A stretch of 64,000 bases of DNA from an uncultured delta proteobacterium. GTDB lineage: Bacteria > Desulfobacterota > Desulfomonilia > UBA1062. Positions 6,873-21,914 of the stretch are shown one piece after another. Each line of letters starts with the position of its first letter. The first letter of the stretch is position 1. The notes beneath the pieces were generated by a model. That model saw only the letters and a program-made list of their open reading frames with translations, was not told the DNA's origin and searched no databases. The stretch covers positions 352,001-416,000 of the forward strand of contig CAWCTR010000014.1 of assembly GCA_963798485.1 (NCBI GenBank), read 5' to 3'. The position numbers and the translations under genes were made by a program.

Positions 6873-8177
6873 ATGACCATTATACCAAGCGGCGGCATAG
6901 AGATAAGCAGATCAGGCCAGATGAAGGCATATCTCGGGTCTTGTGTCGGTGTGGCAATCCTTGATTCAAAGCGCCATATCGGCGGCATGATCCATATCCT
7001 GCTGCCTGAACCGCTTGGCGATATCCCTGAAAACCAGCTCACTTATTATGCAAGCACAGGTGTCCCTCTTTTCCTTGATTCACTGGACAAGGCTGGAGCC
7101 GTAAAAAAGAACCTTTCTGCCTTTATCTCCGGTGGCGCGCTCATTGATCCCAGCTCTCACCAGGAGCTCGCCCTTAACATCGGCGGACGAACCCTGGAGA
7201 TAACGCTCAAGATTCTCAAAGAAAACGGCATCCCCATTAAATTGCTCGAGGCAAGCGGAACAATAGGGTTTTGTATCATGCTTGACGTGGACAAGGCTGT
7301 CTGCTCCATAGAACCTATCCTCCAGGATACTCGCAAAAAAGGCCCCCAACCGAGCACTATGCCGGCACTTGCTGAAATAGGCAGAACCATCGAAGACCTC
7401 CAGCCGATACCCCAGATCGCACTGGGCATTGCAAGCATGATCTCGGACGAAATGACCGACATCGCCACGATCGCCTCTGAGATTCGTAAAGACCAGGTGA
7501 TGGCAGCAGAAGTACTTAAGCTGTGCAACTCCTCTTATATGGGGATGCAAAGGAAGATCGAGACCATCGATGAGGCTATAACAATTCTCGGCAGCAAGAC
7601 CCTGCTCCGGTTGATCATCACGGCCCAGGCGGATAAGCTCTTAAGTTGCTCAGAAAAGGGTTACTCATTGATGCGTGGAGGTCTGTTCTACCATGCCTTG
7701 GCAACCGCACTGCTCAGCGAGAAGCTCTCGCGGGTCCACGGCAAGATAAGGCCTGATCTTGCATACACGGCAGGATTGCTCCATGATATTGGGAAGGTCG
7801 TGCTTGATCAGTACATGGCTAAGGTTCAGCCGCTCTTCTATCGAATTCTGGGCGCCCACAGAGAAGACTCAAGCATACTTGAGCAGAAGATATTCGGTAT
7901 AGACCACAATCTTGCAGGTCTCCACCTTGCTGAAAGTTGGAAGCTGCCGGAAGTAATCAAGGATGTGATCTTGTTCCATCACAAGCCGGACAAGGCAACA
8001 AATAACAGTGATCTGGTCCACCTCGTCTACATTGCCGACGCAATAGCACAAAAGTTTTTCCCGGGATTTGAGATTGAACACCTAGACACCACTCCCTTCC
8101 AAAACAGTCTGAACCTTCTCTCAATTACACCTGATATGATCGAAGAGTCACTCGGTGTGCTGGCGGATATCTTTTAG
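6873..8177 (+). CDS. CheD-like deamidase fused to an HDOD domain
   Basis: N-terminal LGSCV and GGMIHILLP; C-terminal LKLCNSS and AGLLHDIGK. Confidence 0.85.
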   Translation: MTIIPSGGIEISRSGQMKAYLGSCVGVAILDSKRHIGGMIHILLPEPLGDIPENQLTYYASTGVPLFLDSLDKAGAVKKNLSAFISGGALIDPSSHQELALNIGGRTLEITLKILKENGIPIKLLEASGTIGFCIMLDVDKAVCSIEPILQDTRKKGPQPSTMPALAEIGRTIEDLQPIPQIALGIASMISDEMTDIATIASEIRKDQVMAAEVLKLCNSSYMGMQRKIETIDEAITILGSKTLLRLIITAQADKLLSCSEKGYSLMRGGLFYHALATALLSEKLSRVHGKIRPDLAYTAGLLHDIGKVVLDQYMAKVQPLFYRILGAHREDSSILEQKIFGIDHNLAGLHLAESWKLPEVIKDVILFHHKPDKATNNSDLVHLVYIADAIAQKFFPGFEIEHLDTTPFQNSLNLLSITPDMIEESLGVLADIF

Positions 8178-8199
8178 CAGCAAGTAATAAAGATGAGTT

Positions 8200-8460
8200 T
8201 TATGACCTGGTCTTTGCCTTCTGAACCAACTCCAGAAGCTGCATGACCTTCGGTTTGACAGGGGCGGTGATGGATTCCATCTCTTCAGGTGAGAGGATTT
8301 CGTTCAGAAAGGCTGCAATATCTATACGCTCATGCCAGCAATCAAGGATCTTACGGCATGGAAGATCCGATCCGGGCGCCATGCAATAGGTGAAAGAGAC
8401 CAGGTGCCCCAGCATGGCACAACGGATAGTCAACTCGTCATATATGGATCGGCTCACCAT
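8200..8460 (-). CDS. Small Cys-rich conserved hypothetical protein; integration target, N-terminus supplied by the element
   Basis: RCAMLGH...YC...PCRKILDCW; contains the attL repeat at 8395-8421. Confidence 0.75.
   Translation of the reverse strand: MVSRSIYDELTIRCAMLGHLVSFTYCMAPGSDLPCRKILDCWHERIDIAAFLNEILSPEEMESITAPVKPKVMQLLELVQKAKTRS
8395..8421. repeat. attL core AGAGACCAGGTGCCCCAGCATGGCACA
   Basis: Identical to 20206-20232; GTGCC-7 bp-GGCAC dyad. Confidence 0.92.
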
Positions 8461-8541
8461 CGTAGTTTCCAGGAGTTACAAAATATCACTGTGTAAAGCA
8501 TGGGGTATTTTTGCACTCAAAAGACAATTTTGCAAGGAAAT

Positions 8542-8562
8542 TTACCCCACGGTGTTACCCCA
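8542..8562 (+). repeat. Putative arm-type integrase sites (TTACCCCA x2)
   Basis: Same pair with the same 13-bp period at 20160-20180. Confidence 0.65.
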
Positions 8563-8793
8563 AAATAATCTAAAGAAATCCTATGGCAGTATAGGATTCG
8601 AATTATCGCTTGCTAGCATCAGGCCTCATTTTCAGGGCTGTCCGTGAATGATCCGTGAATATGAGGGATATGAACGAGATCTAAAGGTTTCAAAAGAAGA
8701 TCAACGGTCGATCATCTCAAGATGAAAGTGTTGATTAATCGCAGAGATCAATGGTTTTGCCGAAACTTACCCACTGCCCATTTTTAATGATCT

Positions 8794-10023
8794 TTGACAT
8801 CAGAGTATATTTCTTTTAATACTATAGTAATTACCATTTTGAAACAGCAGCATGGCATGGAATTGCCCCACCACTCTGGAAAATTAATTGAAAAGAGGCA
8901 TCCTATGGGCCGAAAGAAAATAAAGAGCGTGACGAGAAGGGAGTTCATCGTCAAAAAAGAGGATGCTATAAGAATCCCACTGAATGGGACAAGAGACTAT
9001 AATCTGGATTTACTAAAAGCTCTCTGTATAAGTCTTGTTCTTCTCTGGCATATTCAGCCCATCAGAATTTATACGTCTAGCAAGTCTTTTATAAGTATAT
9101 TATTTCAATTTATATTAAATACCTTTAACTCGCAAATAACACTAACAGCTGTGCCTCTATTTTATATTGTATCAATATATTTATTTTTTACAAATGGTAA
9201 GAAGGGAATGCACTATTTTAAATATAGATTGTTAAGAGTATCCACCATTTTCATATTTTGGACTGTTATTCAGTATATTATTTACTTTGTCACGACAAAG
9301 CATTTTTTGGGATATATTCCAGATATAAGCTGGGTTAACTGGGTTCGAAGCCTTTTGTTAGGTGGTCCTGATTTGATTTTTGTTGGCGGTTCCGTTTTTT
9401 ACTTCCTTTTAAATATGGTTTGGTTGACATGTTTTGCATTCTTCTATGGATGGAAAGGTGAGGTGAGGATTTGGATTACTATCAGTTATATGATGATTGT
9501 TTTTTTCATCATATACTTTGAAATAATGAATATTAGTGGATTCATTATCCCATACTGGAGAATTGATAATTTTATTATTTATGTACCCATCGTCTATTTA
9601 TTATTTCATAAACCAACCTTGATCCAGTTTAAGTATATATTTTTAATATTGTTTATCATTAGTAGTATTCAAGATATATTTATAACTAAATTAAATTTAA
9701 CTAACTTTATGTATGCTCGAATACCAATAGTATTTGGAGCAATATCAATTTATAGTTTCATACGTAAGAATAAATTCAGTAAAAATAAATTCGTGATGTT
9801 CTTATCAAAATATTCACTTGGTATTTTTGCAACTCACAAGTTTTGTTGGCTATATGTTGGCATCATGTTCTCGGGCATCTTCAATATTAATCCTTTCGAT
9901 TTAAAAAACTCGGGTTTTCTGTTAGGCCAATTCTGGCTAATAACAGGTTTTGTTACGATTATGCTTACTATGCTATCTACATATCTTCTGGGGATGACAC
10001 CCTTGAGAAGGTTCATATCATGA
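8794..10023 (+). CDS. Acyltransferase-3 (OafA-like) membrane protein
   Basis: RDYNLDLLKALCISLVLLWH, AVPLFY, SKYSLGIFATH; multiple TM helices; true start probably downstream. Confidence 0.8.
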   Translation: MTSEYISFNTIVITILKQQHGMELPHHSGKLIEKRHPMGRKKIKSVTRREFIVKKEDAIRIPLNGTRDYNLDLLKALCISLVLLWHIQPIRIYTSSKSFISILFQFILNTFNSQITLTAVPLFYIVSIYLFFTNGKKGMHYFKYRLLRVSTIFIFWTVIQYIIYFVTTKHFLGYIPDISWVNWVRSLLLGGPDLIFVGGSVFYFLLNMVWLTCFAFFYGWKGEVRIWITISYMMIVFFIIYFEIMNISGFIIPYWRIDNFIIYVPIVYLLFHKPTLIQFKYIFLILFIISSIQDIFITKLNLTNFMYARIPIVFGAISIYSFIRKNKFSKNKFVMFLSKYSLGIFATHKFCWLYVGIMFSGIFNINPFDLKNSGFLLGQFWLITGFVTIMLTMLSTYLLGMTPLRRFIS

Positions 10024-10113
10024 TAATATAATGAAGATTGTATCGAAGTATATCTTGGTTAACTGGGATTGTGTATGAATTATATGTAAGAATAGATAAT
10101 ATACTTATAGGAG

Positions 10114-12159
10114 TTGATGCTATTGGCTCGTGTAAAAGGTTCAGCACAAAGAAAAATGGCTGTTGCAAAATCAAAGCAGGCTGTTTCAGGTGATGTCTCA
10201 GATTACAGGCTGAAATTCCTTAGAAAACATTCTGTTACCATTATCTGCGTGTTCTTAACTGTTGCCCTTTGCTCTGTATATTTGCAGGTTAAAGACTACC
10301 AGTTCATAAACCTTGATGATGGCAAATATATTACAGAGAACAGGCATGTTCTTTCCGGATTGAACCTGGAAAATATCAAATGGGCATTCATCAGTGTATA
10401 CGCAGGCAACTGGCATCCTCTCACATGGATATCACATATGATGGATATGGATATATTTGGGATGAAGCCAGGTATGCATCACCTTACTAACGTATTATTC
10501 CATGTGTTGAACTCTATACTACTCTTCATAGTTCTTAACCAGATGACAGGGACATTATGGAGGAGCGCTGCGGTGGCAGCTCTTTTTGCCCTTCACCCTC
10601 TGCATGTGGAGTCGGTTGCCTGGATCGCAGAACGCAAGGATGTACTAAGTACCTTTTTCTGGATGCTCACCATGCTAGCCTATCACAGATACGTAGTAAG
10701 CCGCACAATTTCGAAATATCTCTTCATGATCCTGTTCTTTAGCCTGGGACTTATGGCTAAACCCATGCTGGTAACACTCCCCTTTGTACTGCTGTTACTG
10801 GACTTCTGGCCACTGAAAAGAGAAGAGCTTACCCTTACTAATAATGTTCCCCAGAATGCACTCTCGTGGTGGTCGAATATAAAGCCAAGAGGTATTCTCC
10901 GGTTGATTCTGGAAAAGGTTCCACTCCTGATTATGGCCTTAGCTGCCAGTGGGGCAACTTTCTATGCACAGTCAGTGGAAGGAGCAGTAAACTCTCTGGA
11001 ACAAATGAACTTTGCATTGAGGGTTCAAAATGCAATCATCTCCTATGTTGCATATCTCTGGAAGATGGTCTGGCCACTCGACCTTTCAGTGTTCTACCCA
11101 TATCCAGAACAATTCAGCATATTGGCGGTTGTTATGTGCCTTTTGTTACTCATTGTTATCACCTTGATTGTTGTGATGTCTGCGAGGAGCTTACCTTACC
11201 TTGTAACTGGCTGGTTCTGGTACCTTGGAACTCTAGTGCCGGTAATAGGGATCATTAAGGTGGGCGCTCAGTCCATGGCTGACCGGTACACATATATACC
11301 ACTAATAGGGATATTTGTCATGATTGCCTGGGGTATACACGAATTGCTCGACAAATGGCAATTCAAGAAGATAGTTCTTGCTACATTAACAGGGTTAGTC
11401 ATTCCAATTCTTATAGTATGTTCCTGGATACAAGTAGGATATTGGAAGAATAGTATTACACTTTTTGAGCATACCACCGAGGTAACAGCAAATAATTCTA
11501 GGGCTCACCTTAATCTAGCAGGGGCCTTAATAGATAAAGGTGATTTTGACAGCGCTATAATACATTGCAATGAAGCTTTAAGGATTAATCCTCATGATTA
11601 TGTAGCGCATGGTACCCTAGCAAAAGCCCTGTTAGATAAAGGTGATCTTGAAAGCGCTATGATACATTGCAATGAAGCTTTAAGGGAAAATTCTAATGAC
11701 GCATATAGTTATAATATTATGGGTTTAATTTTAAAAAGAAAAGGTGATATATCAAAAGCGATCACTAATTATTCTAAGGCTATACAGATAAACCCAACCT
11801 ACGTTGATGCTTACAATAATCTGGGTGTAGCCATGATTGACCAGGGGAAAAATGGAGAGGCGCTCAAACAATTCTCAGAGATACTTGAGATAGCACCAGG
11901 ATATCTTCTTGCATATATTCACATGGGCGTGTGTTTAAATAATCTGGGCAGAGTAAATGAAGCTATTCAATCGTATCAGAAAGCGATCCAGATTAAAGCT
12001 GACTCCTTAGAAGCTCATTACGATCTCGCTATCGCCCTCCTGTCACAAGGGAAAAAAGATGAAGCGATTGATCAATTCAAGTTGGTGTTGAGTATAGACC
12101 CAGGGAATATACAGACCCAGAAAATTTTATCCCTGTTATTATCAAGCAGGAATAAATAA
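10114..12159 (+). CDS. TMTC-like GT-C glycosyltransferase with C-terminal TPRs (copy A)
   Basis: FINLDD, WHPLTW, LFALHPLHVESVAWIAERKD, DRYTY; TPR array. Confidence 0.85.
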   Translation: MMLLARVKGSAQRKMAVAKSKQAVSGDVSDYRLKFLRKHSVTIICVFLTVALCSVYLQVKDYQFINLDDGKYITENRHVLSGLNLENIKWAFISVYAGNWHPLTWISHMMDMDIFGMKPGMHHLTNVLFHVLNSILLFIVLNQMTGTLWRSAAVAALFALHPLHVESVAWIAERKDVLSTFFWMLTMLAYHRYVVSRTISKYLFMILFFSLGLMAKPMLVTLPFVLLLLDFWPLKREELTLTNNVPQNALSWWSNIKPRGILRLILEKVPLLIMALAASGATFYAQSVEGAVNSLEQMNFALRVQNAIISYVAYLWKMVWPLDLSVFYPYPEQFSILAVVMCLLLLIVITLIVVMSARSLPYLVTGWFWYLGTLVPVIGIIKVGAQSMADRYTYIPLIGIFVMIAWGIHELLDKWQFKKIVLATLTGLVIPILIVCSWIQVGYWKNSITLFEHTTEVTANNSRAHLNLAGALIDKGDFDSAIIHCNEALRINPHDYVAHGTLAKALLDKGDLESAMIHCNEALRENSNDAYSYNIMGLILKRKGDISKAITNYSKAIQINPTYVDAYNNLGVAMIDQGKNGEALKQFSEILEIAPGYLLAYIHMGVCLNNLGRVNEAIQSYQKAIQIKADSLEAHYDLAIALLSQGKKDEAIDQFKLVLSIDPGNIQTQKILSLLLSSRNK

Positions 12160-12328
12160 ATCTAAAACCAAGATCTCCCAATTATGAACCTATTATCAAT
12201 TTATGTTCAACCCATTTATGAACAACTTTGCTAAAATTCCCGATGCTTGCTATTGTATCAAAGTATATCTTGGTTAACTGGGATTGTGTATGAATTATAT
12301 GTAAGAATAGATAATATACTTATAGGAG

Positions 12329-14389
12329 TTGATGCTATTGGCTCATGTAAAAGGTTCAGCACAAAGAAAAATGGCTGTTGCAAAATCAAAGCAGGCTGTT
12401 TCAGGTGATGTCTCAGATTACAGGCTGAAATTCCTTAGAAAACATTCTGTTACCATTATCTGCGTGCTCTTAACTGTTGCCCTTTGCTCTGTATATTTGC
12501 AGGTTAAAGACCACCAGTTCATAAACTTTGATGATTTCCGATATGTTACGGAGAATAGCCATGTTCTTTCCGGATTGAACCTGGAAAATATCAAATGGGC
12601 TTTCAGTTTTTCTAATCAGGAAGTCTACTATTGGCATCCCCTTACATGGATCTCGCATATGGCTGATATTCAACTATGGGGAGTTAACTCAGGCAAACAT
12701 CATCTTTCCAATCTTTTCATCCACATTATCAATACATTAATTTTGTTTTTTACATTGAGGAAAATGACGGGGGATCTCTGGAAAAGTGCCTTTGTCGCTG
12801 CGCTCTTTGCTCTTCATCCTATCAATGTAGATACTGTTGCATGGGTTGCAGAGAGAAAAAATCTATTGAGCACATCCTTCTGGTTTCTTGTTATGCTTAC
12901 TTACTGTCTCTATGTAAAGCGGCCTTCACTTTTCCGGTACATGTTTGTAGCTATCAGTTTCATCATGGGTCTTCTTGCCAAACCCATGCTTGTCACATTA
13001 CCCTTTGTATTGCTTTTATTAGACTATTGGCCACTCAAACGTATTTCAATTCCTACAGGGTATTCAGAAGGATCTACTTGTGTTCATGATTATCCCTTGC
13101 AAAAGCTTATTAACATATTAAAATCAAGAGTATTTTATGAAAAAATTCCTTTAATCCTCATCGCCTTCATATCAATCCATATTTCTACGTTGTCGCTAAA
13201 AATAGATAGAAATATCATCTCAACTAAACAAGTCCCAATGGATCTCAGGATTAGTAATGCTTTGGTCTCATATATTAAATATATCCAAAAAATTGTTTGG
13301 CCACATGACCTGGCTATATATTATCCTTTTCCTGCAAGCATCCCAACCTGGCAAATCGCAGGTTCGGTTATCATAATAGTATCCATCAGTGTAGCTGTTC
13401 TAAGAGCTTACAGAAGTCATCCTTTTCTTTTTGTGGGTTGGTCATGGTATCTCGGTACCCTTGTTCCGGTAAGTGGATTATATCAAGCAGGGCTATGGCC
13501 TGCTATGGCTGACCGATGGGCCTATATACCTTCGATAGGGATATTCATCATTATTGCCTGGGGTCTACCTGAATTGCTCGATAAATGGCAATTCAAGAAG
13601 ATAGCTCTTGCTACCCTAACAGGGATAGTCATTCCAATTCTTATAGTGTGTTCATGGATGCAAGTAGGCTATTGGAAGAATACTATTACACTCTTTGAGC
13701 ATGCCACCAAAGTAACAGAAAATAATGCTTTGGCTAACACTGATCTAGGAGCGGCCTTAATGGATAAAGGTGATCTTGACAGCGCTATAATACATTTCAA
13801 TGAAGCATTAAGGATAAAGCCTCATGATTATCTAGCACGTATTGACCTAGCAAAAGCCCTGTTAGATAAAGGTGATCTTGACAGCGCTATGATACATTGC
13901 AATGAAGCAATAAAGGATAATCCAAATTACGCATATAATTATAATGTTATGGGTCTAATTTTAAAAAGAAAAGGTGAGATGTTAAAAGCAGTCTACTATT
14001 ATTCTAAGGCTATACAATTAGAATCTAATTATTTTAATGCGTACAATAATCTTGGTGTTGCTTATGTAGATCTGCATAGATTTAATGATGCAATCAGACA
14101 GTTCTCCAAGGTCATCGAACTAGATCCTAAAAATGATGTTGCATTTGTACACTTGGGGGTTTGTTTAATTTATCAGGGCAGACTAAATGAAGCCATACAG
14201 CAATTTCACAAAGCACTTCAAATTAATCCCAATTCCTTAGAAGCACACTATAATCTCGGAATTGCTCTCATGTCACAAGGGAAGAAAGATGAAGCGATTG
14301 ATCAATTTAAGTTGGTATTGATTATAGACCCAGGGAATATACAGGCCCAGAAGATTTTATCCATGTTATTGTCAAGCAGGAATAAATAA
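12329..14389 (+). CDS. TMTC-like GT-C glycosyltransferase with C-terminal TPRs (copy B)
   Basis: FINFDD, WHPLTW, LFALHPINVDTVAWVAERKN, DRWAY; TPR array. Confidence 0.85.
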   Translation: MMLLAHVKGSAQRKMAVAKSKQAVSGDVSDYRLKFLRKHSVTIICVLLTVALCSVYLQVKDHQFINFDDFRYVTENSHVLSGLNLENIKWAFSFSNQEVYYWHPLTWISHMADIQLWGVNSGKHHLSNLFIHIINTLILFFTLRKMTGDLWKSAFVAALFALHPINVDTVAWVAERKNLLSTSFWFLVMLTYCLYVKRPSLFRYMFVAISFIMGLLAKPMLVTLPFVLLLLDYWPLKRISIPTGYSEGSTCVHDYPLQKLINILKSRVFYEKIPLILIAFISIHISTLSLKIDRNIISTKQVPMDLRISNALVSYIKYIQKIVWPHDLAIYYPFPASIPTWQIAGSVIIIVSISVAVLRAYRSHPFLFVGWSWYLGTLVPVSGLYQAGLWPAMADRWAYIPSIGIFIIIAWGLPELLDKWQFKKIALATLTGIVIPILIVCSWMQVGYWKNTITLFEHATKVTENNALANTDLGAALMDKGDLDSAIIHFNEALRIKPHDYLARIDLAKALLDKGDLDSAMIHCNEAIKDNPNYAYNYNVMGLILKRKGEMLKAVYYYSKAIQLESNYFNAYNNLGVAYVDLHRFNDAIRQFSKVIELDPKNDVAFVHLGVCLIYQGRLNEAIQQFHKALQINPNSLEAHYNLGIALMSQGKKDEAIDQFKLVLIIDPGNIQAQKILSMLLSSRNK

Positions 14390-15182
14390 GTCTAAAACCA
14401 AGATCTACCAATTATGAAACAATCCTTAATTTTTGAGCTCATTTCGTATACTTATAGTAGCCCAAAACCTATTAAAAATACCTTATAAAAAGTGAAGCTT
14501 TCGTGTCAAGTGCAACGCTCTGGTATGAAGTGATAAGCTTCGTTTGTTTCAAACCAAGATCATCGGTTTTAGGGCATTTCGAAGGCGCCAATTTATTGCA
14601 GAGATCAACGTAAATTAATATTGACACAGGTTACTATATATAGTATGGACCTTTCAGATATGCACTAAATGTGACTTACAAAACAATAAGATCAGATTAA
14701 AAATGAGTGAGCAAATAAAAAGAGCTAAATAAATTGATGAATGCCAACAGGCAAAAAATAATATAAAAGCTCGCTAATAATAAGCTCACAAACAAAACTT
14801 CACTGATCGCCAAATAATTCAATAACTCAATTCAAAAAGCATATCCCATAACTTAAAGACGGCCCACGTCTTTGCTAGGCACAATTCCTAGCCTCTAAAA
14901 TACCTGAGAGTGCTTTAAGGCATTAGAGAAGTTACAACTTCCCTTCAGTGTGTCTAAGGCCCTCTCTGATCAAAAGGATAGGGATATGACACTTAAATTA
15001 CTTTTCCAGAATACTGAACAGCCCTTGAATGAAGATGAAGGGGTGCACAGCCCTGAGCGAAGCCCGGGGCAAGTAGGGGAGTCCGAGAATGGGCCCGTAA
15101 GGAGCTCGTCGGAGGACTTCCCTACTTGCCCCTCCACCCCCGAGCGAAAAGCGACCCAGTGGGGGGAGCGTATGAGCGAGAG

Positions 15183-15210
15183 GGGGGGGCAAATGACTAA
15201 CAGCCCCCCC
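15183..15210 (+). other. Putative nick-site (dso/oriT) hairpin GGGGGGGC-AAATGACTAACA-GCCCCCCC
   Basis: 8-bp GC stem with CTAA in the loop, at the 5' end of rep, as in pT181/MOBT origins. Confidence 0.7.
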
Positions 15211-15820
15211 GATAACGTGAAAATAGAAGATTATAAAATCCTGTCTTCAGGTATTGATACTCTTTATTTAGCAATCTATGTTGATTGGTTAATCAATATA
15301 TTCGATTACTTAGATCAATTAAAAGAGAAGGCAAAGAATTCCGACCATGAAGTAGAAGGAATATTCAAACTAGAAGACGGTTCAAAGGAATGGAAATTCA
15401 ATATCAAGCCCTTTGGAAGCAAAGGTTACTCATGGATCTTAACTTCAAATGATTATGCTCTTAAAATAGGTGACTGGTCAGAGGTACGTTCAAGACCTAG
15501 CATAATGGTCGAGATAAGGTCAGAGACACTTTTAAGAATGGGTCCTGAAAATGCTGTTCTTTGGATATTAGAGCTCATTTCAGGAATCGGAACAAAAATA
15601 ATATCCGTCAAACCAAGCCGTGTTGATTTCTATGTGGACATGCTTGTCCCAGCAGAAATGTTTTCAGATGAAATAATGGATTATGCAGTCACCAAGGCAA
15701 GAGAATATGACATCCATAAAAAAAGTTGCACATTCACGGGGGTTACCATAGGCAGGGGTAAGATTATTGCCAGAATTTATGATAAGGGTCTTGAAGTACT
15801 AACCAAATCTAAAAAATTAT

Positions 15821-17131
15821 GGTTCATCCCACTAAAGCGTACCTGGACTCATGCAGGGCATAGATTTTGAGTTTGAAGAATTCCCTATCTCTGAACCCAT
15901 AAGCCTGTTTTTGAAGGGTCTTAATCTTGTTATTTGTGCCCTCCAAGGGACCTGTAGATATGGGGTAATCATAATAAGCGAGGATCCCTCGACGATGCAT
16001 TTGAAGCATTCCTGCGAAACGCACAAGCATCCTGATTCCTGATGAGAAAGCCTTTTCAGTCCAGTCATCGAGGCAACTGGCAGCTTCTTCCTTACTTGGT
16101 TGTTTCCAGATCAACCGGAGATACTCCTTCATGTAGTAGGCCAGGGCGAGGGGCTCGTTGAGTTTCAGGGCTTCTTCCAGGTGCTCCTTTTCTTTGCGTC
16201 TGGAGTCCAGGCGTTCAGAATTCTTCAGCAGGAGCCATCGGGTGCCTCTGAGAACCTTCTTCTGAAGAGGCCCCGTTGCTTCATTATACAGATCTCTTCT
16301 CAAATCAGACAGCTTCTCGTTATACATCTTGATGACATGGAAATGATCAAACACGATCTCAGCATCCGGATGATTCTCAAGCACCGCTGCTATGTATGAT
16401 GGAGACATGTCAATCGCTATGGCTTTAAGTTTCACCTTGTGCCTCTTTATCCTATTCCAGAATGGATCCAGTGCATCTGCTCCTCGTCCATCACCCACAT
16501 GCACAACTGCACCAGTCTTCAGATCAAGTACCACCGTGAGGTACTTATGATGCTTCCCAATCGAGATCTCATCAATGGCTATGAGATCAAGCTTCCTGAT
16601 ATCAGGGCGACGAAACCGCCTCTCAAGATTGCGCTTCTGGATATCCTTCACCAGGCCCCAGCTCACCCCGAGATGTCTGGCAACATCCAGCATGGTCATG
16701 TATCGCGACAACTCCAGAACATACCGCTCGAATGCCCTGGTATACGTCCTCCGTTCATCTGCAAATCCAATGCTTACCTGCCTGAGCGCACCGCATTCCT
16801 CGCATTCCACCCGCTGTACAGGCAGTTCAATCACCACAGGCTTCCGCCCTATTGGCACACACCGGAAACTCCTCAGAAGAGATCCTTTCTTCGTCACTCG
16901 ATCAGAATAACAACAAGGACACATCATCTTACGCCGCTCCTGGCTCAATCTGAACACTATCTTGCCACCAGAATATTCCGTGTGTACATGCTGATACCCA
17001 ATGATTCCAAATCCGTGATACAATACACTCGTGGACATGCCATAACCCCTTCCTGTTTTCTTTCGTCAGATTCAGAAAGGCAGGTATGTCCACTCCTTTC
17101 AACTTAAAAGTACGCTTCCGTGTGAAGAACC
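15821..17131 (-). mobile_element. ISL3-family IS, copy 1
   Basis: Imperfect IRs GGTTCATCCCACTAAAGCGTAC / GGTTCTTCACACGGAAGCGTAC; flanked by AAAATTAT. Confidence 0.95.
15824..17038 (-). CDS. ISL3 transposase
   Basis: CPCC...CEEC zinc finger, IAIDE, DMS, FDHFHV, EGTNNKIK. Confidence 0.95.
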   Translation of the reverse strand: MSTSVLYHGFGIIGYQHVHTEYSGGKIVFRLSQERRKMMCPCCYSDRVTKKGSLLRSFRCVPIGRKPVVIELPVQRVECEECGALRQVSIGFADERRTYTRAFERYVLELSRYMTMLDVARHLGVSWGLVKDIQKRNLERRFRRPDIRKLDLIAIDEISIGKHHKYLTVVLDLKTGAVVHVGDGRGADALDPFWNRIKRHKVKLKAIAIDMSPSYIAAVLENHPDAEIVFDHFHVIKMYNEKLSDLRRDLYNEATGPLQKKVLRGTRWLLLKNSERLDSRRKEKEHLEEALKLNEPLALAYYMKEYLRLIWKQPSKEEAASCLDDWTEKAFSSGIRMLVRFAGMLQMHRRGILAYYDYPISTGPLEGTNNKIKTLQKQAYGFRDREFFKLKIYALHESRYALVG

Positions 17132-17139
17132 AAAATTAT

Positions 17140-18450
17140 GGTTCATCCCACTAAAGCGTACCTGGACTCATGCAGGGCATAGATTTTGAGTTTGAAGAAT
17201 TCCCTATCTCTGAACCCATAAGCCTGTTTTTGAAGGGTCTTAATCTTGTTATTTGTGCCCTCCAAGGGACCTGTAGATATGGGGTAATCATAATAAGCGA
17301 GGATCCCTCGACGATGCATTTGAAGCATTCCTGCGAAACGCACAAGCATCCTGATTCCTGATGAGAAAGCCTTTTCAGTCCAGTCATCGAGGCAACTGGC
17401 AGCTTCTTCCTTACTTGGTTGTTTCCAGATCAACCGGAGATACTCCTTCATGTAGTAGGCCAGGGCGAGGGGCTCGTTGAGTTTCAGGGCTTCTTCCAGG
17501 TGCTCCTTTTCTTTGCGTCTGGAGTCCAGGCGTTCAGAATTCTTCAGCAGGAGCCATCGGGTGCCTCTGAGAACCTTCTTCTGAAGAGGCCCCGTTGCTT
17601 CATTATACAGATCTCTTCTCAAATCAGACAGCTTCTCGTTATACATCTTGATGACATGGAAATGATCAAACACGATCTCAGCATCCGGATGATTCTCAAG
17701 CACCGCTGCTATGTATGATGGAGACATGTCAATCGCTATGGCTTTAAGTTTCACCTTGTGCCTCTTTATCCTATTCCAGAATGGATCCAGTGCATCTGCT
17801 CCTCGTCCATCACCCACATGCACAACTGCACCAGTCTTCAGATCAAGTACCACCGTGAGGTACTTATGATGCTTCCCAATCGAGATCTCATCAATGGCTA
17901 TGAGATCAAGCTTCCTGATATCAGGGCGACGAAACCGCCTCTCAAGATTGCGCTTCTGGATATCCTTCACCAGGCCCCAGCTCACCCCGAGATGTCTGGC
18001 AACATCCAGCATGGTCATGTATCGCGACAACTCCAGAACATACCGCTCGAATGCCCTGGTATACGTCCTCCGTTCATCTGCAAATCCAATGCTTACCTGC
18101 CTGAGCGCACCGCATTCCTCGCATTCCACCCGCTGTACAGGCAGTTCAATCACCACAGGCTTCCGCCCTATTGGCACACACCGGAAACTCCTCAGAAGAG
18201 ATCCTTTCTTCGTCACTCGATCAGAATAACAACAAGGACACATCATCTTACGCCGCTCCTGGCTCAATCTGAACACTATCTTGCCACCAGAATATTCCGT
18301 GTGTACATGCTGATACCCAATGATTCCAAATCCGTGATACAATACACTCGTGGACATGCCATAACCCCTTCCTGTTTTCTTTCGTCAGATTCAGAAAGGC
18401 AGGTATGTCCACTCCTTTCAACTTAAAAGTACGCTTCCGTGTGAAGAACC
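17140..18450 (-). mobile_element. ISL3-family IS, copy 2 (tandem, apparently identical)
   Basis: Same IRs and ORF; AAAATTAT at 17132-17139 and 18451-18458. Confidence 0.93.
17143..18357 (-). CDS. ISL3 transposase
   Basis: Protein identical to 15824-17038. Confidence 0.95.
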   Translation of the reverse strand: MSTSVLYHGFGIIGYQHVHTEYSGGKIVFRLSQERRKMMCPCCYSDRVTKKGSLLRSFRCVPIGRKPVVIELPVQRVECEECGALRQVSIGFADERRTYTRAFERYVLELSRYMTMLDVARHLGVSWGLVKDIQKRNLERRFRRPDIRKLDLIAIDEISIGKHHKYLTVVLDLKTGAVVHVGDGRGADALDPFWNRIKRHKVKLKAIAIDMSPSYIAAVLENHPDAEIVFDHFHVIKMYNEKLSDLRRDLYNEATGPLQKKVLRGTRWLLLKNSERLDSRRKEKEHLEEALKLNEPLALAYYMKEYLRLIWKQPSKEEAASCLDDWTEKAFSSGIRMLVRFAGMLQMHRRGILAYYDYPISTGPLEGTNNKIKTLQKQAYGFRDREFFKLKIYALHESRYALVG

Positions 18451-19040
18451 AAAATTATACATGTTTGATATATGGGGGATTGAACAAATTCCCCCTGGCA
18501 TGAAAATAATCAGGATAGAATTTCAACTCAGACGTGAAGCGATCAAATCCCTTCTAATAGATCAAGTAATCGACCTTTTTGAATTCGAAAATAATGTGTG
18601 GGTGTATTTAACTGATTGGCTTAAGTTCCAGGATAGACCGGGAGAACATCATACCCAAAGAACTACCCTTGAGTGGTGGAAGAAGGTTCAGAACGGTTAT
18701 AAGGACTGCCAAGGAGCTAACCCTGCCATACGTACTGAAACTGTTAGAATAGACAAAAGAAGGCTTTCTTTGCAAGCGTTAGGCATTCTCACGTCTCTTC
18801 ACGCAGCGGTATTAGAAGAAAACGGTGCTGAAGAAAATCATAAAGTTGAATTAGTGGAGAGTGTTAGCGTCTACATAAAAGAACTCAGTAGTGTCACCAA
18901 GAGTATGGATGAAATAAACAATAAAATTAAGAGAAAGCGACCTAAGTATCATCGAACGAGGGAAACGAAATGACCTTCTTGTCATCCCTCTCATCCAAGC
19001 GTATTATATTCTCTCAGAATTTAGGGATAAGGGTGGGCAT

Positions 19041-19355
19041 ATGACATGCCTTACCCCTGCCACCGTTTCAGAAATGCTTAACATGTCGATCAGATGGGTT
19101 TATCTTCATGCTTCTGAGCTTGGGGCATCTCGGATTGGTGGAACATGGATATTCACACAGGAGGGCCTTGACAATGCCTTACAAAGAGCGAGGGGGATGG
19201 AGAGGGACAGTCAAGATAAATGGAACCAGGAAGCAAGCGTGGTTCACATCAAAGAGGGAAGCCATAGAATGGGAAAGCGAAACAAGAAAAGAATTGAAAA
19301 GCCAGAAGCCCCGGACCACCACGGGCTTACTCAATTTGTCCGTGGCCTTTCTTAA
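19041..19355 (+). CDS. Excisionase-like HTH protein
   Basis: LTPATVSEMLNMSIRWVY...RIGGTWIF pattern; sits just upstream of the integrase. Confidence 0.65.
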   Translation: MTCLTPATVSEMLNMSIRWVYLHASELGASRIGGTWIFTQEGLDNALQRARGMERDSQDKWNQEASVVHIKEGSHRMGKRNKKRIEKPEAPDHHGLTQFVRGLS

Positions 19356-20190
19356 CTACATGGAACGATATTCTAAATCCACCTACTCTCATAAAAAAAC
19401 ATTATGCAAAAGACTCCTGGCTGCATGGGGAGACATAGACATCCTTGCCATTACGCCTAAGATGTGCCTGACCTATCTTGATTCTCGAACCGTGGTATCA
19501 GGCAATGCAGCCAACGAAGACCTTCATGATTTGAAGTCGATGTTCTCACATTTTCGAAAGTTCCACGGTATAAACCACAACCCCCTGCTCTATATTGAGC
19601 CATACGCTCACAATGTCACCCCACCCTACGTTCCGCCGAGAGAAGACCTGTTAAAGCTATTACTCGTAACTACAGGGCAAGACAGAGTAATGCTTGATGT
19701 CTTTAGGTTCACTGCTGCTCGGAGATCGGAAGTGCTACGGCTGACATGGGATGATATTCTTTTTGATCAGAGAAGCATAAGGCTAAAGACTCAGAAAAAC
19801 CGAAAGAGCCAGTGGAAAGCCTACTATGTGCCGATAAGTGAGGCCTTGTATCAATCACTGCAATGGCAATGGAAGAACCGGGACAAAGACAGCCCATATG
19901 TATTCACTCACGATGGAAAGCCTTATTCTCGCCGTGAGGATTGGTTACCTAAACTATGTGAGAAAACCAAAATCAAACCCTTCGGCTTTCATTCGTTCAG
20001 GAGAGCATTTGCAACCGGAATCATGAACACCGGCAAGGCATCGCTGAAGGATGTTTCCTTGCTCCTTGGTCATTCCTCAGTGAGGAACACAGAGCTTTAT
20101 CTTAGATCAATCAATCCGAATCTTCCTGGCTTGGTGGAGCTACTGAACGAAGAGGCAATTTACCCCAAGGACTTACCCCAAGAATTATAA
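19174..20190 (+). CDS. Tyrosine recombinase/integrase
   Basis: TAARRSE, HSFRR, LGHS, TELY catalytic motifs; AGGAGG SD before ATG 19174. Confidence 0.93.
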   Translation: MPYKERGGWRGTVKINGTRKQAWFTSKREAIEWESETRKELKSQKPRTTTGLLNLSVAFLNYMERYSKSTYSHKKTLCKRLLAAWGDIDILAITPKMCLTYLDSRTVVSGNAANEDLHDLKSMFSHFRKFHGINHNPLLYIEPYAHNVTPPYVPPREDLLKLLLVTTGQDRVMLDVFRFTAARRSEVLRLTWDDILFDQRSIRLKTQKNRKSQWKAYYVPISEALYQSLQWQWKNRDKDSPYVFTHDGKPYSRREDWLPKLCEKTKIKPFGFHSFRRAFATGIMNTGKASLKDVSLLLGHSSVRNTELYLRSINPNLPGLVELLNEEAIYPKDLPQEL

Positions 20191-20277
20191 CTCTATGATC
20201 TTATTAGAGACCAGGTGCCCCAGCATGGCACACCTGGCCGTATAGTCATCATAACGCGACTTCGTATTTCTTACCAT
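20185..20277 (-). pseudogene. Orphaned native 5' end of the small Cys-rich gene ([24 protein letters not shown]...)
   Basis: ATG overlaps the trpB2 stop region; reads in frame through attR, then stops after 6 element-derived codons. Confidence 0.8.
20206..20232. repeat. attR core
   Basis: Identical to 8395-8421. Confidence 0.92.
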
Positions 20278-21653
20278 TTCCCTGTCTTCGATATCTTGGG
20301 CTTAGGCAGCCCGTTCAAAGACCTGATAGATCTCTGGAGGTCTTCTTCAGGCAGCGGGAAGTCTATAAGCTTGCCCTCCATATAGCTCTCGTAGCCTTTG
20401 AGGTCCATGAGTCCATGCCCGCTCCAGTTAAAGAGGATGACCTTCTCCTTGCCCTCTTCTCTGGCCTTATTCGCCTCATCTATCACTGCCGCAATGGCAT
20501 GCGACGTCTCAGGCGCCGGGATAAACCCTTCGGTCCTGGCCCACAACATTGCACTCTCGTAACACTTGAGCTGGTTCACGGCCCGAGGTGTTATGAGCCC
20601 CTCAACAGCGGCAGCGCTTACCAGGGGCGCCATCCCGTGATAACGCAACCCCCCGGCATGGATCGGGGGCGAGACGAATTCATGTCCCAGGGAGTACATG
20701 GGCAGCAGCGGGGTCATCTTGGCAACATCACCGTGGTCATAGGCAAAAGGCGCCCGTGTCAAGGTAGGACAGGACGACGGTTCCACCGGGATAATGTCGA
20801 TCTGGGCACCGTTGATCTTGTCCAGTACAAAGGGGAATGCGATGCCGGCAAAATTGCTCCCGCCGCCGGCACATGCGATGACTATATCCACCTTTTTCTC
20901 ATTGATCTTTTCAAGCTGTTTCTTGGCTTCGAGCCCAATAATGGTCTGATGAAGCATTACATGGTTCAGTACGCTCCCAAGGGAATATCGCGTCTTCCCG
21001 GTCGGGTCGCTGACTGCCGCCTCAACGGCCTCGCTGATGGCTATGCCGAGGCTGCCCGGCGTATCCGGGTCCTTGGCCAGGATATCACGGCCCGCCTGTG
21101 TCTGGGTGGATGGGCTCGCTATGCATTCAGCACCCCATACGTTCATCATGAGCTTCCGGAAAGGCTTCTGCTCGAAACTGATCCGGACCATGAACACCTT
21201 GCATTCCAGTCCGATGAGGGCGCAGGCATAGGATAGTGCGCTTCCCCATTGCCCGGCGCCGGTTTCGGTGCAGATCTTTTCGATTCCGAACTGTTTATTA
21301 TACCAGGCCTGGGGTATGGCGGTATTCGGTTTGTGACTGCCGGCGGGAGAAACACCTTCATTCTTATAATAGATCTTGGCCGGTGTCTTGAGAGCCTTTT
21401 CAAGATAAACCGCTCTGTGGAGCGGGGACGGTCTCCACTGATACAGGAGTTCGAGAATTCCCTCAGGGATGTCTATCCAACGCTTCTGGCTCACTTCCTG
21501 CTCAATAAGATTCATGGGAAAAACAGGTGTAAGTGCCTCCGGCGTTACAGGGTTACCGTCGGGACCGAGCGGCGGCAGCATCGGTGTCGGCAAGTCAGCC
21601 GCCAGGTTATACCATTGTCTTGGGATTTCATCTTCTCGCAGAAAAACTTTCAT
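20271..21653 (-). CDS. trpB2: TrpB2-type tryptophan synthase beta-like PLP enzyme
   Basis: [26 protein letters not shown]. Confidence 0.93.
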
Positions 21654-21914
21654 GCACAATCCTCCCTATTATTCTTTTATCACCATCACTAATTTCACTT
21701 TAAGCCCTATCAGTATCTGCCATGTATTGATGCAAGCAGAAAGATAACCGGCTTAAATGTTTCTATTTATAGAAACCTATCTCGATAGATAAGTCAAGAA
21801 AGTTTTTACGTTCCGGTTAAACCGAGCACCTTGGATATCTTGCCTAAAGTAACTGAACTATTTAATCCTTATAATCAGCGATAGCGATTCGGATAGTTAT
21901 TGGATAATTTTATG

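Follow-up and report, generated by a model that had tools for sequence, protein, structure and literature searches.

What becomes of a gene when a mobile element has recombined into its 5′ coding end? The question is raised by a 64,000-nucleotide (nt) stretch of DNA from an uncultured delta proteobacterium (positions 352,001 to 416,000 of contig CAWCTR010000014.1, assembly GCA_963798485.1), here called the window, in which the body of a small minus-strand gene encoding a protein with four conserved cysteines (the small 4-Cys gene) is separated from its native start codon, at the end of trpB2, by 11,811 bp of inserted DNA. In the genome holding the window (G000), the element has entered a site that is uninterrupted in relatives, the 5′ end of the gene has been replaced with its frame preserved, and a conserved hairpin at the site has been kept at one junction and lost at the other. 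We consider it probable that the element's own integrase mediated this integration at the hairpin core and that the element arm, in rebuilding the 5′ end of its target, also allows the gene to be expressed.

Integration into the 5′ coding end of the small 4-Cys gene

The element is bracketed by a 48-nt direct repeat (8395-8442 and 20206-20253, 81% identity), the first 27 nt of which are identical and represent the attachment (att) core. One core (8395..8421, 27 bp, no strand) lies at attL, the junction that rebuilds the gene, and the other (20206..20232, likewise 27 bp without strand) at attR, the junction that strands the native 5′ end. The 27-mer has just these two copies in the whole 4.3-Mb genome, and by our own arithmetic its chance recurrence within 15 kb is about 1e-8. 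Between the repeats the G+C content (GC) is low, at 0.30-0.44 over 8500-15500 compared with about 0.50 outside. Within the small gene the core corresponds to codons 14-22, beginning exactly at the C14 codon, and the integrase gene ends 16 bp from the attR core.

At attR, the native 5′ end has been left on trpB2 (20271..21659, minus strand), which encodes a TrpB-like pyridoxal phosphate enzyme (NCBIfam TrpB-like PRK12391, NF009057; E 7e-212). The minus-strand end of trpB2 reads ...AAA TGG TAA, and the ATG at 20277 overlaps its stop codon (..AAATGGTAA..). From this ATG, 24 native codons are read before the frame enters foreign sequence and stops after six element-encoded residues, giving an open reading frame (ORF) of 30 codons (20185..20277, minus strand). 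At attL, the gene is open again as a hybrid of 86 amino acids (aa) (8200..8460, minus strand); the ORF starts MVSRSIYDELTIRC, and its product opens MVSRSIYDELTIRCAMLGHLVS before continuing into the Cys-rich body. The hybrid takes codons 1-13 from the element arm; codons 14-22 are those of the att core, and everything after them is host body. The element-borne ATG and 13 codons (MVSRSIYDELTIR; 8422..8460, minus strand) have diverged from the native arm (20233-20277), and the acidic YD(D/E)...RC motif is kept by both starts. The native form measures 88 aa and the rebuilt one 86 aa because the stretch as far as the core's end is 24 residues long in the former and 22 in the latter. A diverged, in-frame replacement start at ATG 8460 had been described in the original prediction, made from the letters of the window; its coordinates and strings all hold, and the observation is correct in every detail.

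The native state of the site could be established from relatives. The small gene is present in 52 of the 61 genomes searched (G000 included), and 29 loci were fetched from other genomes, of which 27 have trpB2 directly upstream of the intact gene, the predicted start overlapping the trpB2 stop as RTGGTAR in 15 of these 27. Same-genus orthologs open MVRKTKSPYDDYTARC with the ATG over the trpB2 stop, their starts reading MVR(K/N)TKSPYDDYTARC across it; the orthologs of G002 and G003 begin MVRKTKSPYDDYTARCPMLGHLV, and an MVR- or MVK-type N terminus is carried by 20 of 42 database homologs. Uninterrupted native-type relatives are 88 aa long (e.g. P0002 and P0004-P0013), and eight same-genus genomes have the native arrangement. 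The database protein P0002 is nearly identical to the stranded fragment of the window. The same-genus orthologs, the adjacency to trpB2, and P0002 agree in identifying 20277 as the native start, as the original prediction had it, and the relatives provide the empty site that it asked for; the opposite outcome, with orthologs starting MVSRSIY away from trpB2, was looked at and not encountered. Among the other homologs, P0014 (MSGRSKYDHLSTRC) combines a window-like N terminus with a G002-type body, and P0019 has an unrelated start and lacks the first Cys. P0022 was considered as a further variant N terminus and set aside; it is probably native in type, its start having been called at another position (compare G001).

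A tyrosine integrase is encoded beside attR (19108..20190, plus strand; PF00589, E 5.7e-21; phrog_1 integrase, E 6.5e-46), its start likely being ATG 19174 (MPYKERGGW...). Numbered from this ATG, residues R183, K208, H273, R276, H300, and Y309, which we take to be the catalytic ones, are invariant across five relatives. Upstream of and overlapping int is a small helix-turn-helix (HTH), excisionase-like gene (19041..19355, plus strand, end uncertain; HTH_17, PF12728, E 5.7e-4, below cut-off; phrog_1840 excisionase, E 1.2e-4), and the order of HTH gene and then int recurs in 6 of 10 sibling loci. The two ORFs, 19041-19355 and 19108-20190, overlap by about 250 nt in different frames, and both frames are aligned across the overlap by tblastn in sibling loci.

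Copies of a short repeat, TGGGGTAA, number eight in the window against 1.7 expected, a count reached by 0 of 100 shuffles. Two copies 13 bp apart lie in the arm far from int (8542..8562, minus strand) and a second pair, on the same strand and with the same spacing, lies in the int-proximal arm (20160..20180, minus strand); these pairs, present in both arms, are plausible candidates for arm-type integrase-binding sites. With att repeats at both ends, an uninterrupted site in relatives, and an integrase with conserved catalytic-type positions beside one end, the element belongs to the tyrosine-recombinase integrative elements.

A conserved hairpin at the att core and its fate in sister species

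The core falls on an inverted repeat, namely the sequence that encodes T-R-C-P-M-L-G-H-L-V in orthologs, which forms a conserved stem-loop of 11-14 pairs and is intact beside trpB2 after integration (20209..20239, minus strand). Pairing and covariation were measured on an alignment of 27 orthologs (A3), in which standard pairs filled 88.5% of 243 cells, compared with 31-51% when the partner was slid by one to three columns. Covariation reached 0.164; the shuffles averaged 0.107, and none of the 500 scored as high. Both-sided changes were seen in four pairs (nine cells). The compensating positions are third-codon positions, pairing Arg with His, Cys with Gly, and Pro with Leu. The helix was recovered independently by RNAalifold, with 11 pairs, a 7-nt loop, and further compensatory pairs. 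Rfam searches of a native locus and the attR locus returned 0 matches at E <= 1.

Fold energies were then compared between loci. The native locus of G014 folds at -30.3 kcal/mol (z -6.2) and the attR junction of the window, made up of the native 5′ arm and the core, at -24.5 kcal/mol (z -3.0); values of -12 kcal/mol (z +0.1) and -9 kcal/mol (z +1.3) were obtained for the rebuilt gene of the window at attL and for that of G011. The hairpin therefore stays with trpB2 and is gone from the rebuilt gene. Its dyad symmetry and nucleotide conservation would suit tyrosine recombinases as a core site.

Two sister species, G007 and G011, carry the bodies closest to that of the window's gene (87% and 83% identity) and have no trpB2 directly upstream of it. 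Both are split at the same site (loci L046, G007:C4:38800-46700, and L047, G011:C42:1-5800), and their trpB2 copies are followed by a decayed native start, the stranded frame stopping after 4 codons in G011 and after 10 in G007. The stranded hairpins are nevertheless kept, as a perfect 9-bp repeat in G011 (L047:4255-4283, minus strand; -26.4 kcal/mol, z -4.9) and likewise in G007 (L046:304-334, plus strand; -24.3 kcal/mol, z -6.1), and both have gained a T-rich tail and score as intrinsic-terminator-like. That the hairpin has been retained after the coding was lost argues more strongly than any other observation for its acting on behalf of trpB2 at the nucleic acid level.

In these two species the small gene begins MKKSPSPYDDLTARC, and the arm reads CGT-TGT where natives carry AGG-TG(C/T) and includes a TTGCAA...TGcAAAAAT block; the element arm of the window is homologous to it over about 95 bp upstream of the core. 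The small gene is intact in G011 and in P0003, a G007-like database protein, and a comparison of codons 1-14 between G007 and G011 gives three synonymous changes, no replacements, and one indel, which are tiny numbers. The roughly 7 kb between trpB2 and the small gene encode a THUMP methyltransferase, a LepA-like GTPase, a radical-SAM gene, a pseudouridine synthase, and CheX, together with a BrnT-like toxin gene in G007 only, and genes of this block match G000 contigs C10 and C30 at 82-91%. No integrase was found between trpB2 and the small gene in either species. A second, different element at the site was considered and dropped, the block consisting of housekeeping genes and the BrnT-like toxin gene without an integrase. 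We read these loci as pointing to repeated use of the same site and to one lineage in which an element-type start cassette may have outlived its element.

The hairpin presumably serves the 3′ end of the trpB2 message. On a wider view, which is possible and which we hold only tentatively, the site would be a conserved stem-loop of that 3′ end, acting as a stabiliser or terminator and sharing sequence with the opening 25 codons of the gene that follows. Elements would recombine there, and the cassette of promoter, start, and N terminus could outlive them, permanently rewiring the two-gene unit.

Expression of the rebuilt gene and competing explanations

The part of the protein that is exchanged was defined by an alignment of 36 full-length sequences (A2), in which C14, L17, G18, Y25, C26, P34, C35, C41, W42, and K71 are invariant. 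The first of these, C14, is encoded by the first core codon, and all 10 are kept in the body of the hybrid. Residues 1-13 are the least conserved of the protein, a Y/F-D-(D/E) patch and R13 being all that recurs there across the 36 sequences. The 4-Cys domain (8200-8421 in the window, minus strand) follows the pattern RC..LG(H/G)..F.YC..PC....CW. It is found at the C terminus of NusB (PF01029) in 39 of 46 longer hits (proteins P0043-P0088) and also N-terminally on MobA-like nucleotidyltransferases, UDPGP-type nucleotidyltransferases, and an AAA ATPase, and in such fusions the conserved part starts around "RC" with an acidic patch before it. Given this conserved part and the variability of residues 1-13, the exchange made by the element is therefore confined to a brief N-terminal extension that tolerates change, and the acidic YDEL..RC is preserved. 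The proposal that this gene is important enough to need repair is not borne out: the 13 swapped residues are the least conserved part of the protein, and the arm may be no more than host DNA picked up by an ancestral element.

Searches with the small protein gave no family match in Pfam, NCBIfam, or PHROG, and a PDB profile search reached a best E of 1.4. In a protein atlas, its homolog P0012 fell only into unnamed Thermodesulfobacteriota clusters. The family comprises 451 representatives at E <= 0.001 among 1.84 billion, and a profile of the small protein gave 56 pattern matches in viral contigs, of which 0 were confirmed. The fusions hint that the domain may be a regulatory, metal-binding, or nucleic acid-binding module. 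No literature on a small TrpB2-linked protein turned up, in a search too thin to claim its absence from print.

Any transcription of the rebuilt gene must start within 8461-8793, because the upstream neighbour, an acyltransferase gene on the plus strand, is divergent. Within this interval, a candidate promoter was picked out by eye on the minus strand (8507..8535), comprising TTGCAA at 8535-8530, a 17-nt spacer, and TGc-AAAAAT with the -10 hexamer at 8512-8507; the same TTGCAA-17-TGcAAAAAT block is conserved in the G007 and G011 arms (alignment A1), and it may be the promoter of the element arm. A core within the 5′ coding region and an arm bringing an in-frame start and a new N terminus place the element among those that replace the 5′ end of their target. 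That regulation is swapped along with the N terminus, as had been proposed, would follow from the loss of both the translational coupling to trpB2 and the conserved stem-loop.

In the proposed course of events, the integrase would recombine the element through the 27-bp core into codons 14-22 of the small gene, and the native start and complete hairpin would be left on trpB2 as a 30-codon dead-end ORF. The far arm would supply a new ATG and 13 codons with the acidic YD(D/E)...RC motif; it would probably bring a promoter as well. The 4-Cys body would then stay open as an 86-aa protein, uncoupled from trpB2 and without the hairpin, and trpB2 would retain the hairpin at its 3′ end.

Several observations weigh against this reading, and some of them suit a different one, namely that the hybrid ORF is a silent by-product. 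The similarity of the arms would then record the origin of the element's att site (attP) by imprecise excision from an earlier host, the gene would be effectively off, and its frame would be open only because the insertion is recent. A consensus promoter scan of 8000-9000 found no promoter on the minus strand, the by-eye candidate scoring 8/12, below the scan threshold. Direct evidence for expression did not come from a search of sequencing runs for the locus, which gave 20 DNA-type runs and no RNA run (best word share 0.23), a result that is neutral on expression and not evidence either way. The element-type start of G007 has a 1-nt deletion, and the swapped residues are weakly conserved across the family. 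The deletion is likely, if not proven, to be an assembly error, because trpB2 of G007 is also frameshifted. What makes a silent hybrid unlikely is that three diverged element-type N termini (the window, G011/P0003, and P0014) all preserve the reading frame together with the YD..RC motif, that codons 1-14 of G007 and G011 differ, in the small sample above, without a replacement, that the -35/extended -10-like block is conserved between arms otherwise only about 60% alike, and that the body keeps every invariant residue. In tested precedents a rebuilt gene is expressed (PMC8409611). On account of the conserved promoter-like block, the frame and motif kept in three diverged arms, and these precedents, we infer that the hybrid is transcribed from the arm and functional.

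The original prediction went further and proposed a regulated, reversible switch, in which excision and re-integration would toggle between a trpB2-coupled 88-aa and an element-driven 86-aa form. The integrase with its invariant catalytic-type positions, the excisionase-like HTH gene, the identical 27-bp cores and arm repeats on both sides, and a gene that would be open in both states are all in keeping with such a switch, and excision may still be possible. We nevertheless judge it improbable. No contig joins attL to attR across the element in any of four runs (X1-X4, compared over 7600-21800), a comparison at low depth that is neutral on excision. A replication gene of the element is broken by two insertion sequence (IS) copies, so that the element seems to be in decay; in G007 and G011 an element-type start is fixed without an integrase between trpB2 and the gene, and nothing supports regulation. 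Regulatory-switch prophages (active lysogeny) disrupt their target gene while integrated and restore it on excision; here the gene is open in the integrated state, and the element falls outside that definition.

A misjoin in the assembly, by which an element contig was placed into the trpB2 locus through the shared 27-mer, has also to be weighed. Both junctions are known from a single metagenome-derived assembly, whose contamination is 6.96%, and no contig in X1-X4 bridges a junction by the 31-nt rule; the only read-derived contig that crosses attR extends 13 nt past the core, against the 31 nt required for bridging. On the other hand, a misjoin would not give rise to 5′ arms that differ on the two sides of the core and are both in frame, to a native start left stranded, or to an integrase whose end is 16 bp from the core. 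X1 and X2 contain host and element pieces with 0-1 differences (e.g. 8186-8415 and 20056-20245), and in the sister genomes the split recurs, independently, at the same stretch of nucleotides, all of which leaves a chimera extremely improbable.

The further points that weigh against integrase-mediated integration at a hairpin core, with rebuilding of the gene, concern the target and the hairpin. Integrase homologs at the same target, for which the original prediction suggested a search, were found in none of the sets searched. Among the 61 relatives, six genomes match the integrase at E <= 1e-20 (G000 included; 32-40% identical), none at this target; across the whole order (52 genomes), only G000 itself matches at E <= 1e-60; species-representative genomes gave two loci at 21% identity; and JGI metagenomes gave 14 loci, the best at 37% and 33%, located elsewhere. 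Because no other integrase copy was seen at the target, an element family directed to it is suggested only by the variant N termini. Regarding the hairpin, weaker pair-count measures were equalled by 34 and 49 of 500 shuffles, the covariation test uses related sequences and these can inflate shuffle-based measures, and the attR hairpin of the window has no following T-run and was not flagged as a terminator. Any role given to the att hairpin is putative. With these points counted, integration through the core and a rebuilt, expressed gene is still the explanation that we favour.

Element content, integrase relatives, and comparable systems

The 11.8-kb element has room only for int, an xis-like gene, a Rep-like gene, three cargo genes, and two IS copies. 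The first cargo gene encodes an acyltransferase-3 family membrane protein (8794..10023, plus strand; PF01757, E 2.1e-07, 30.8 bits against a cut-off of 31; GC 0.30-0.35). It is followed by genes for two paralogous membrane proteins (10114-12159 and 12329-14389, plus strand), both of which combine a PMT_2-like glycosyltransferase part at the N terminus with TPR repeats at the C terminus (Pfam TPR, PF13231), the paralogs being 78-96% identical in repeat families D2-D4. These genes make up a tandem duplication of about 2.2 kb (10037-14389), in which the 5′ 300 nt, including an upstream leader, are 96% identical and later parts 78-86%.

Downstream of the cargo, the 5′ part (14950..15812, plus strand) and the 3′ part (18459..18973, plus strand) of a rolling-circle-type replication initiator (Rep) homolog are separated by an IS insertion. 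The two parts are contiguous in an intact 397-aa homolog at locus L044, which is similar to a Bacillus plasmid gene annotated "replication initiation factor" (E 1e-31; 30% identity at 80% coverage) and also to the endonuclease encoded by gene II in filamentous phages of Thermus. Pfam gave no match to the pieces or to the intact homolog. The split gene is called a rolling-circle-type Rep (Rep_trans-like) because of the plasmid initiator and gene II matches, that is, by similarity to annotated genes and not as a curated family call. The insertion consists of two identical ISL3-family copies in direct tandem (15813..18458, minus strand; copies at 15821-17131 and 17140-18450, 1311 bp each; PF01610, E 1.4e-68), arranged as AAAATTAT-IS-AAAATTAT-IS-AAAATTAT, where AAAATTAT is 8 bp and the copies are 100% identical (D1). 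No further full copy of this IS was found in the genome. The arrangement fits either a second insertion into the target duplication of the first copy or a duplication of the IS together with its target. Because the Rep homolog is broken by the IS copies, autonomous replication has probably been lost.

No conjugation module (relaxase, coupling protein, or type IV secretion) was found among 10 proteins scanned against Pfam, eight of them element-encoded, and no virion structural or packaging genes were found in a PHROG scan of six proteins (five element-encoded and the hybrid gene), which returned only the integrase, the excisionase, and a weak endonuclease hit. The element is accordingly neither an ICE (integrative and conjugative element) nor a prophage, and is best described as a small integrative element or island with putative surface-glycan-modifying cargo.

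The integrase relatives that were found lie elsewhere, with neither trpB2 nor the small gene near any of them. The nearest (30-38% identity) abut tRNA-Glu in four of eight loci scanned (L038, L039, L040, and L044). A resemblance between the att hairpin and these tRNA-Glu targets was considered and rejected, alignment scores being 10-14 against a shuffle mean of about 12.5. G000 itself holds two more integrases of the same clade at 38-39% identity (C4:155922-156971 and C22:36503-37576), the latter with two internal stops. On the far side of the small gene, the downstream neighbour (6873-8177, plus strand) encodes a CheD-like N-terminal domain fused to an HDIG/HD domain, the C-terminal part of which occupies the same position in G007.

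Integrases are said to prefer tRNA stem-loops (Williams, 2002). Like tRNA-targeting islands and prophages, the window element has its core on a conserved, dyad-symmetric stem-loop and carries a replacement gene end; unlike them, it targets a protein-coding 5′ end, and the rebuilt end lies far from int and not beside it. Phage 21 and e14 reportedly keep icd functional by supplying a diverged copy of the displaced 3′ end. In that case the promoter and start are unchanged, whereas in the window it is the 5′ end that is replaced. Integration of SXT/R391 ICEs in the 5′ end of prfC was reportedly described by Hochhut and Waldor (1999).

The mechanism of 5′-end replacement is already known, dusA and prfC elements doing the same. 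According to one report, elements such as IMEVchUSA3 are inserted by a tyrosine integrase into the 5′ coding end of the conserved gene dusA, their arm restores the frame with a diverged N terminus of similar length and a new promoter, they also encode a small directionality factor, and SXT does likewise in prfC (PMC8409611, and Farrugia et al. cited within). As in the dusA elements, the 5′ end in the window is rebuilt with an in-frame start and a diverged N terminus. The host here, in contrast, is of the Thermodesulfobacteriota type and not a proteobacterium, the target gene is another one, and the swap uncouples the gene from trpB2 and removes a conserved stem-loop; expression was tested for dusA and is predicted for the window hybrid. 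The 5′ end of prfC is the target of SXT/R391 ICEs, and membership of the SXT family is defined by a near-identical Int (PMC2791158). The window element and SXT/R391 both enter the 5′ end of a protein gene, but SXT is about 100 kb and conjugative, compared with 11.8 kb and no conjugation genes among 10 ORFs scanned, and membership of the SXT family is very unlikely. The element was filed in neither the SXT nor the DusA family, its nearest integrase relatives being tRNA-Glu-associated. From the precedent of the dusA- and prfC-targeting elements, the arm would be captured host DNA that is kept because it limits the cost of insertion.

What is new and worth following up is the core on a covarying intragenic hairpin, an apparent element-type cassette fixed in sister species, and a promiscuous 4-Cys domain. 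With this locus, a strategy seen at dusA and prfC in Proteobacteria, in which the element brings along a spare start and promoter, would reach uncultured Thermodesulfobacteriota of the syntroph type and a new target, and the locus suggests why the target works, a conserved intragenic hairpin offering both sequence constancy across hosts and dyad symmetry. It also draws attention to a 4-Cys domain family that has no name, is closely tied to trpB2, and in other proteins is fused to NusB or to nucleotidyltransferases, and to a possible RNA element at the end of trpB2. With G000 carrying the element, G007 and G011 with the cassette fixed, and eight natives of the same genus, these genomes form a natural experiment that could show what purpose the coupling to trpB2 serves.

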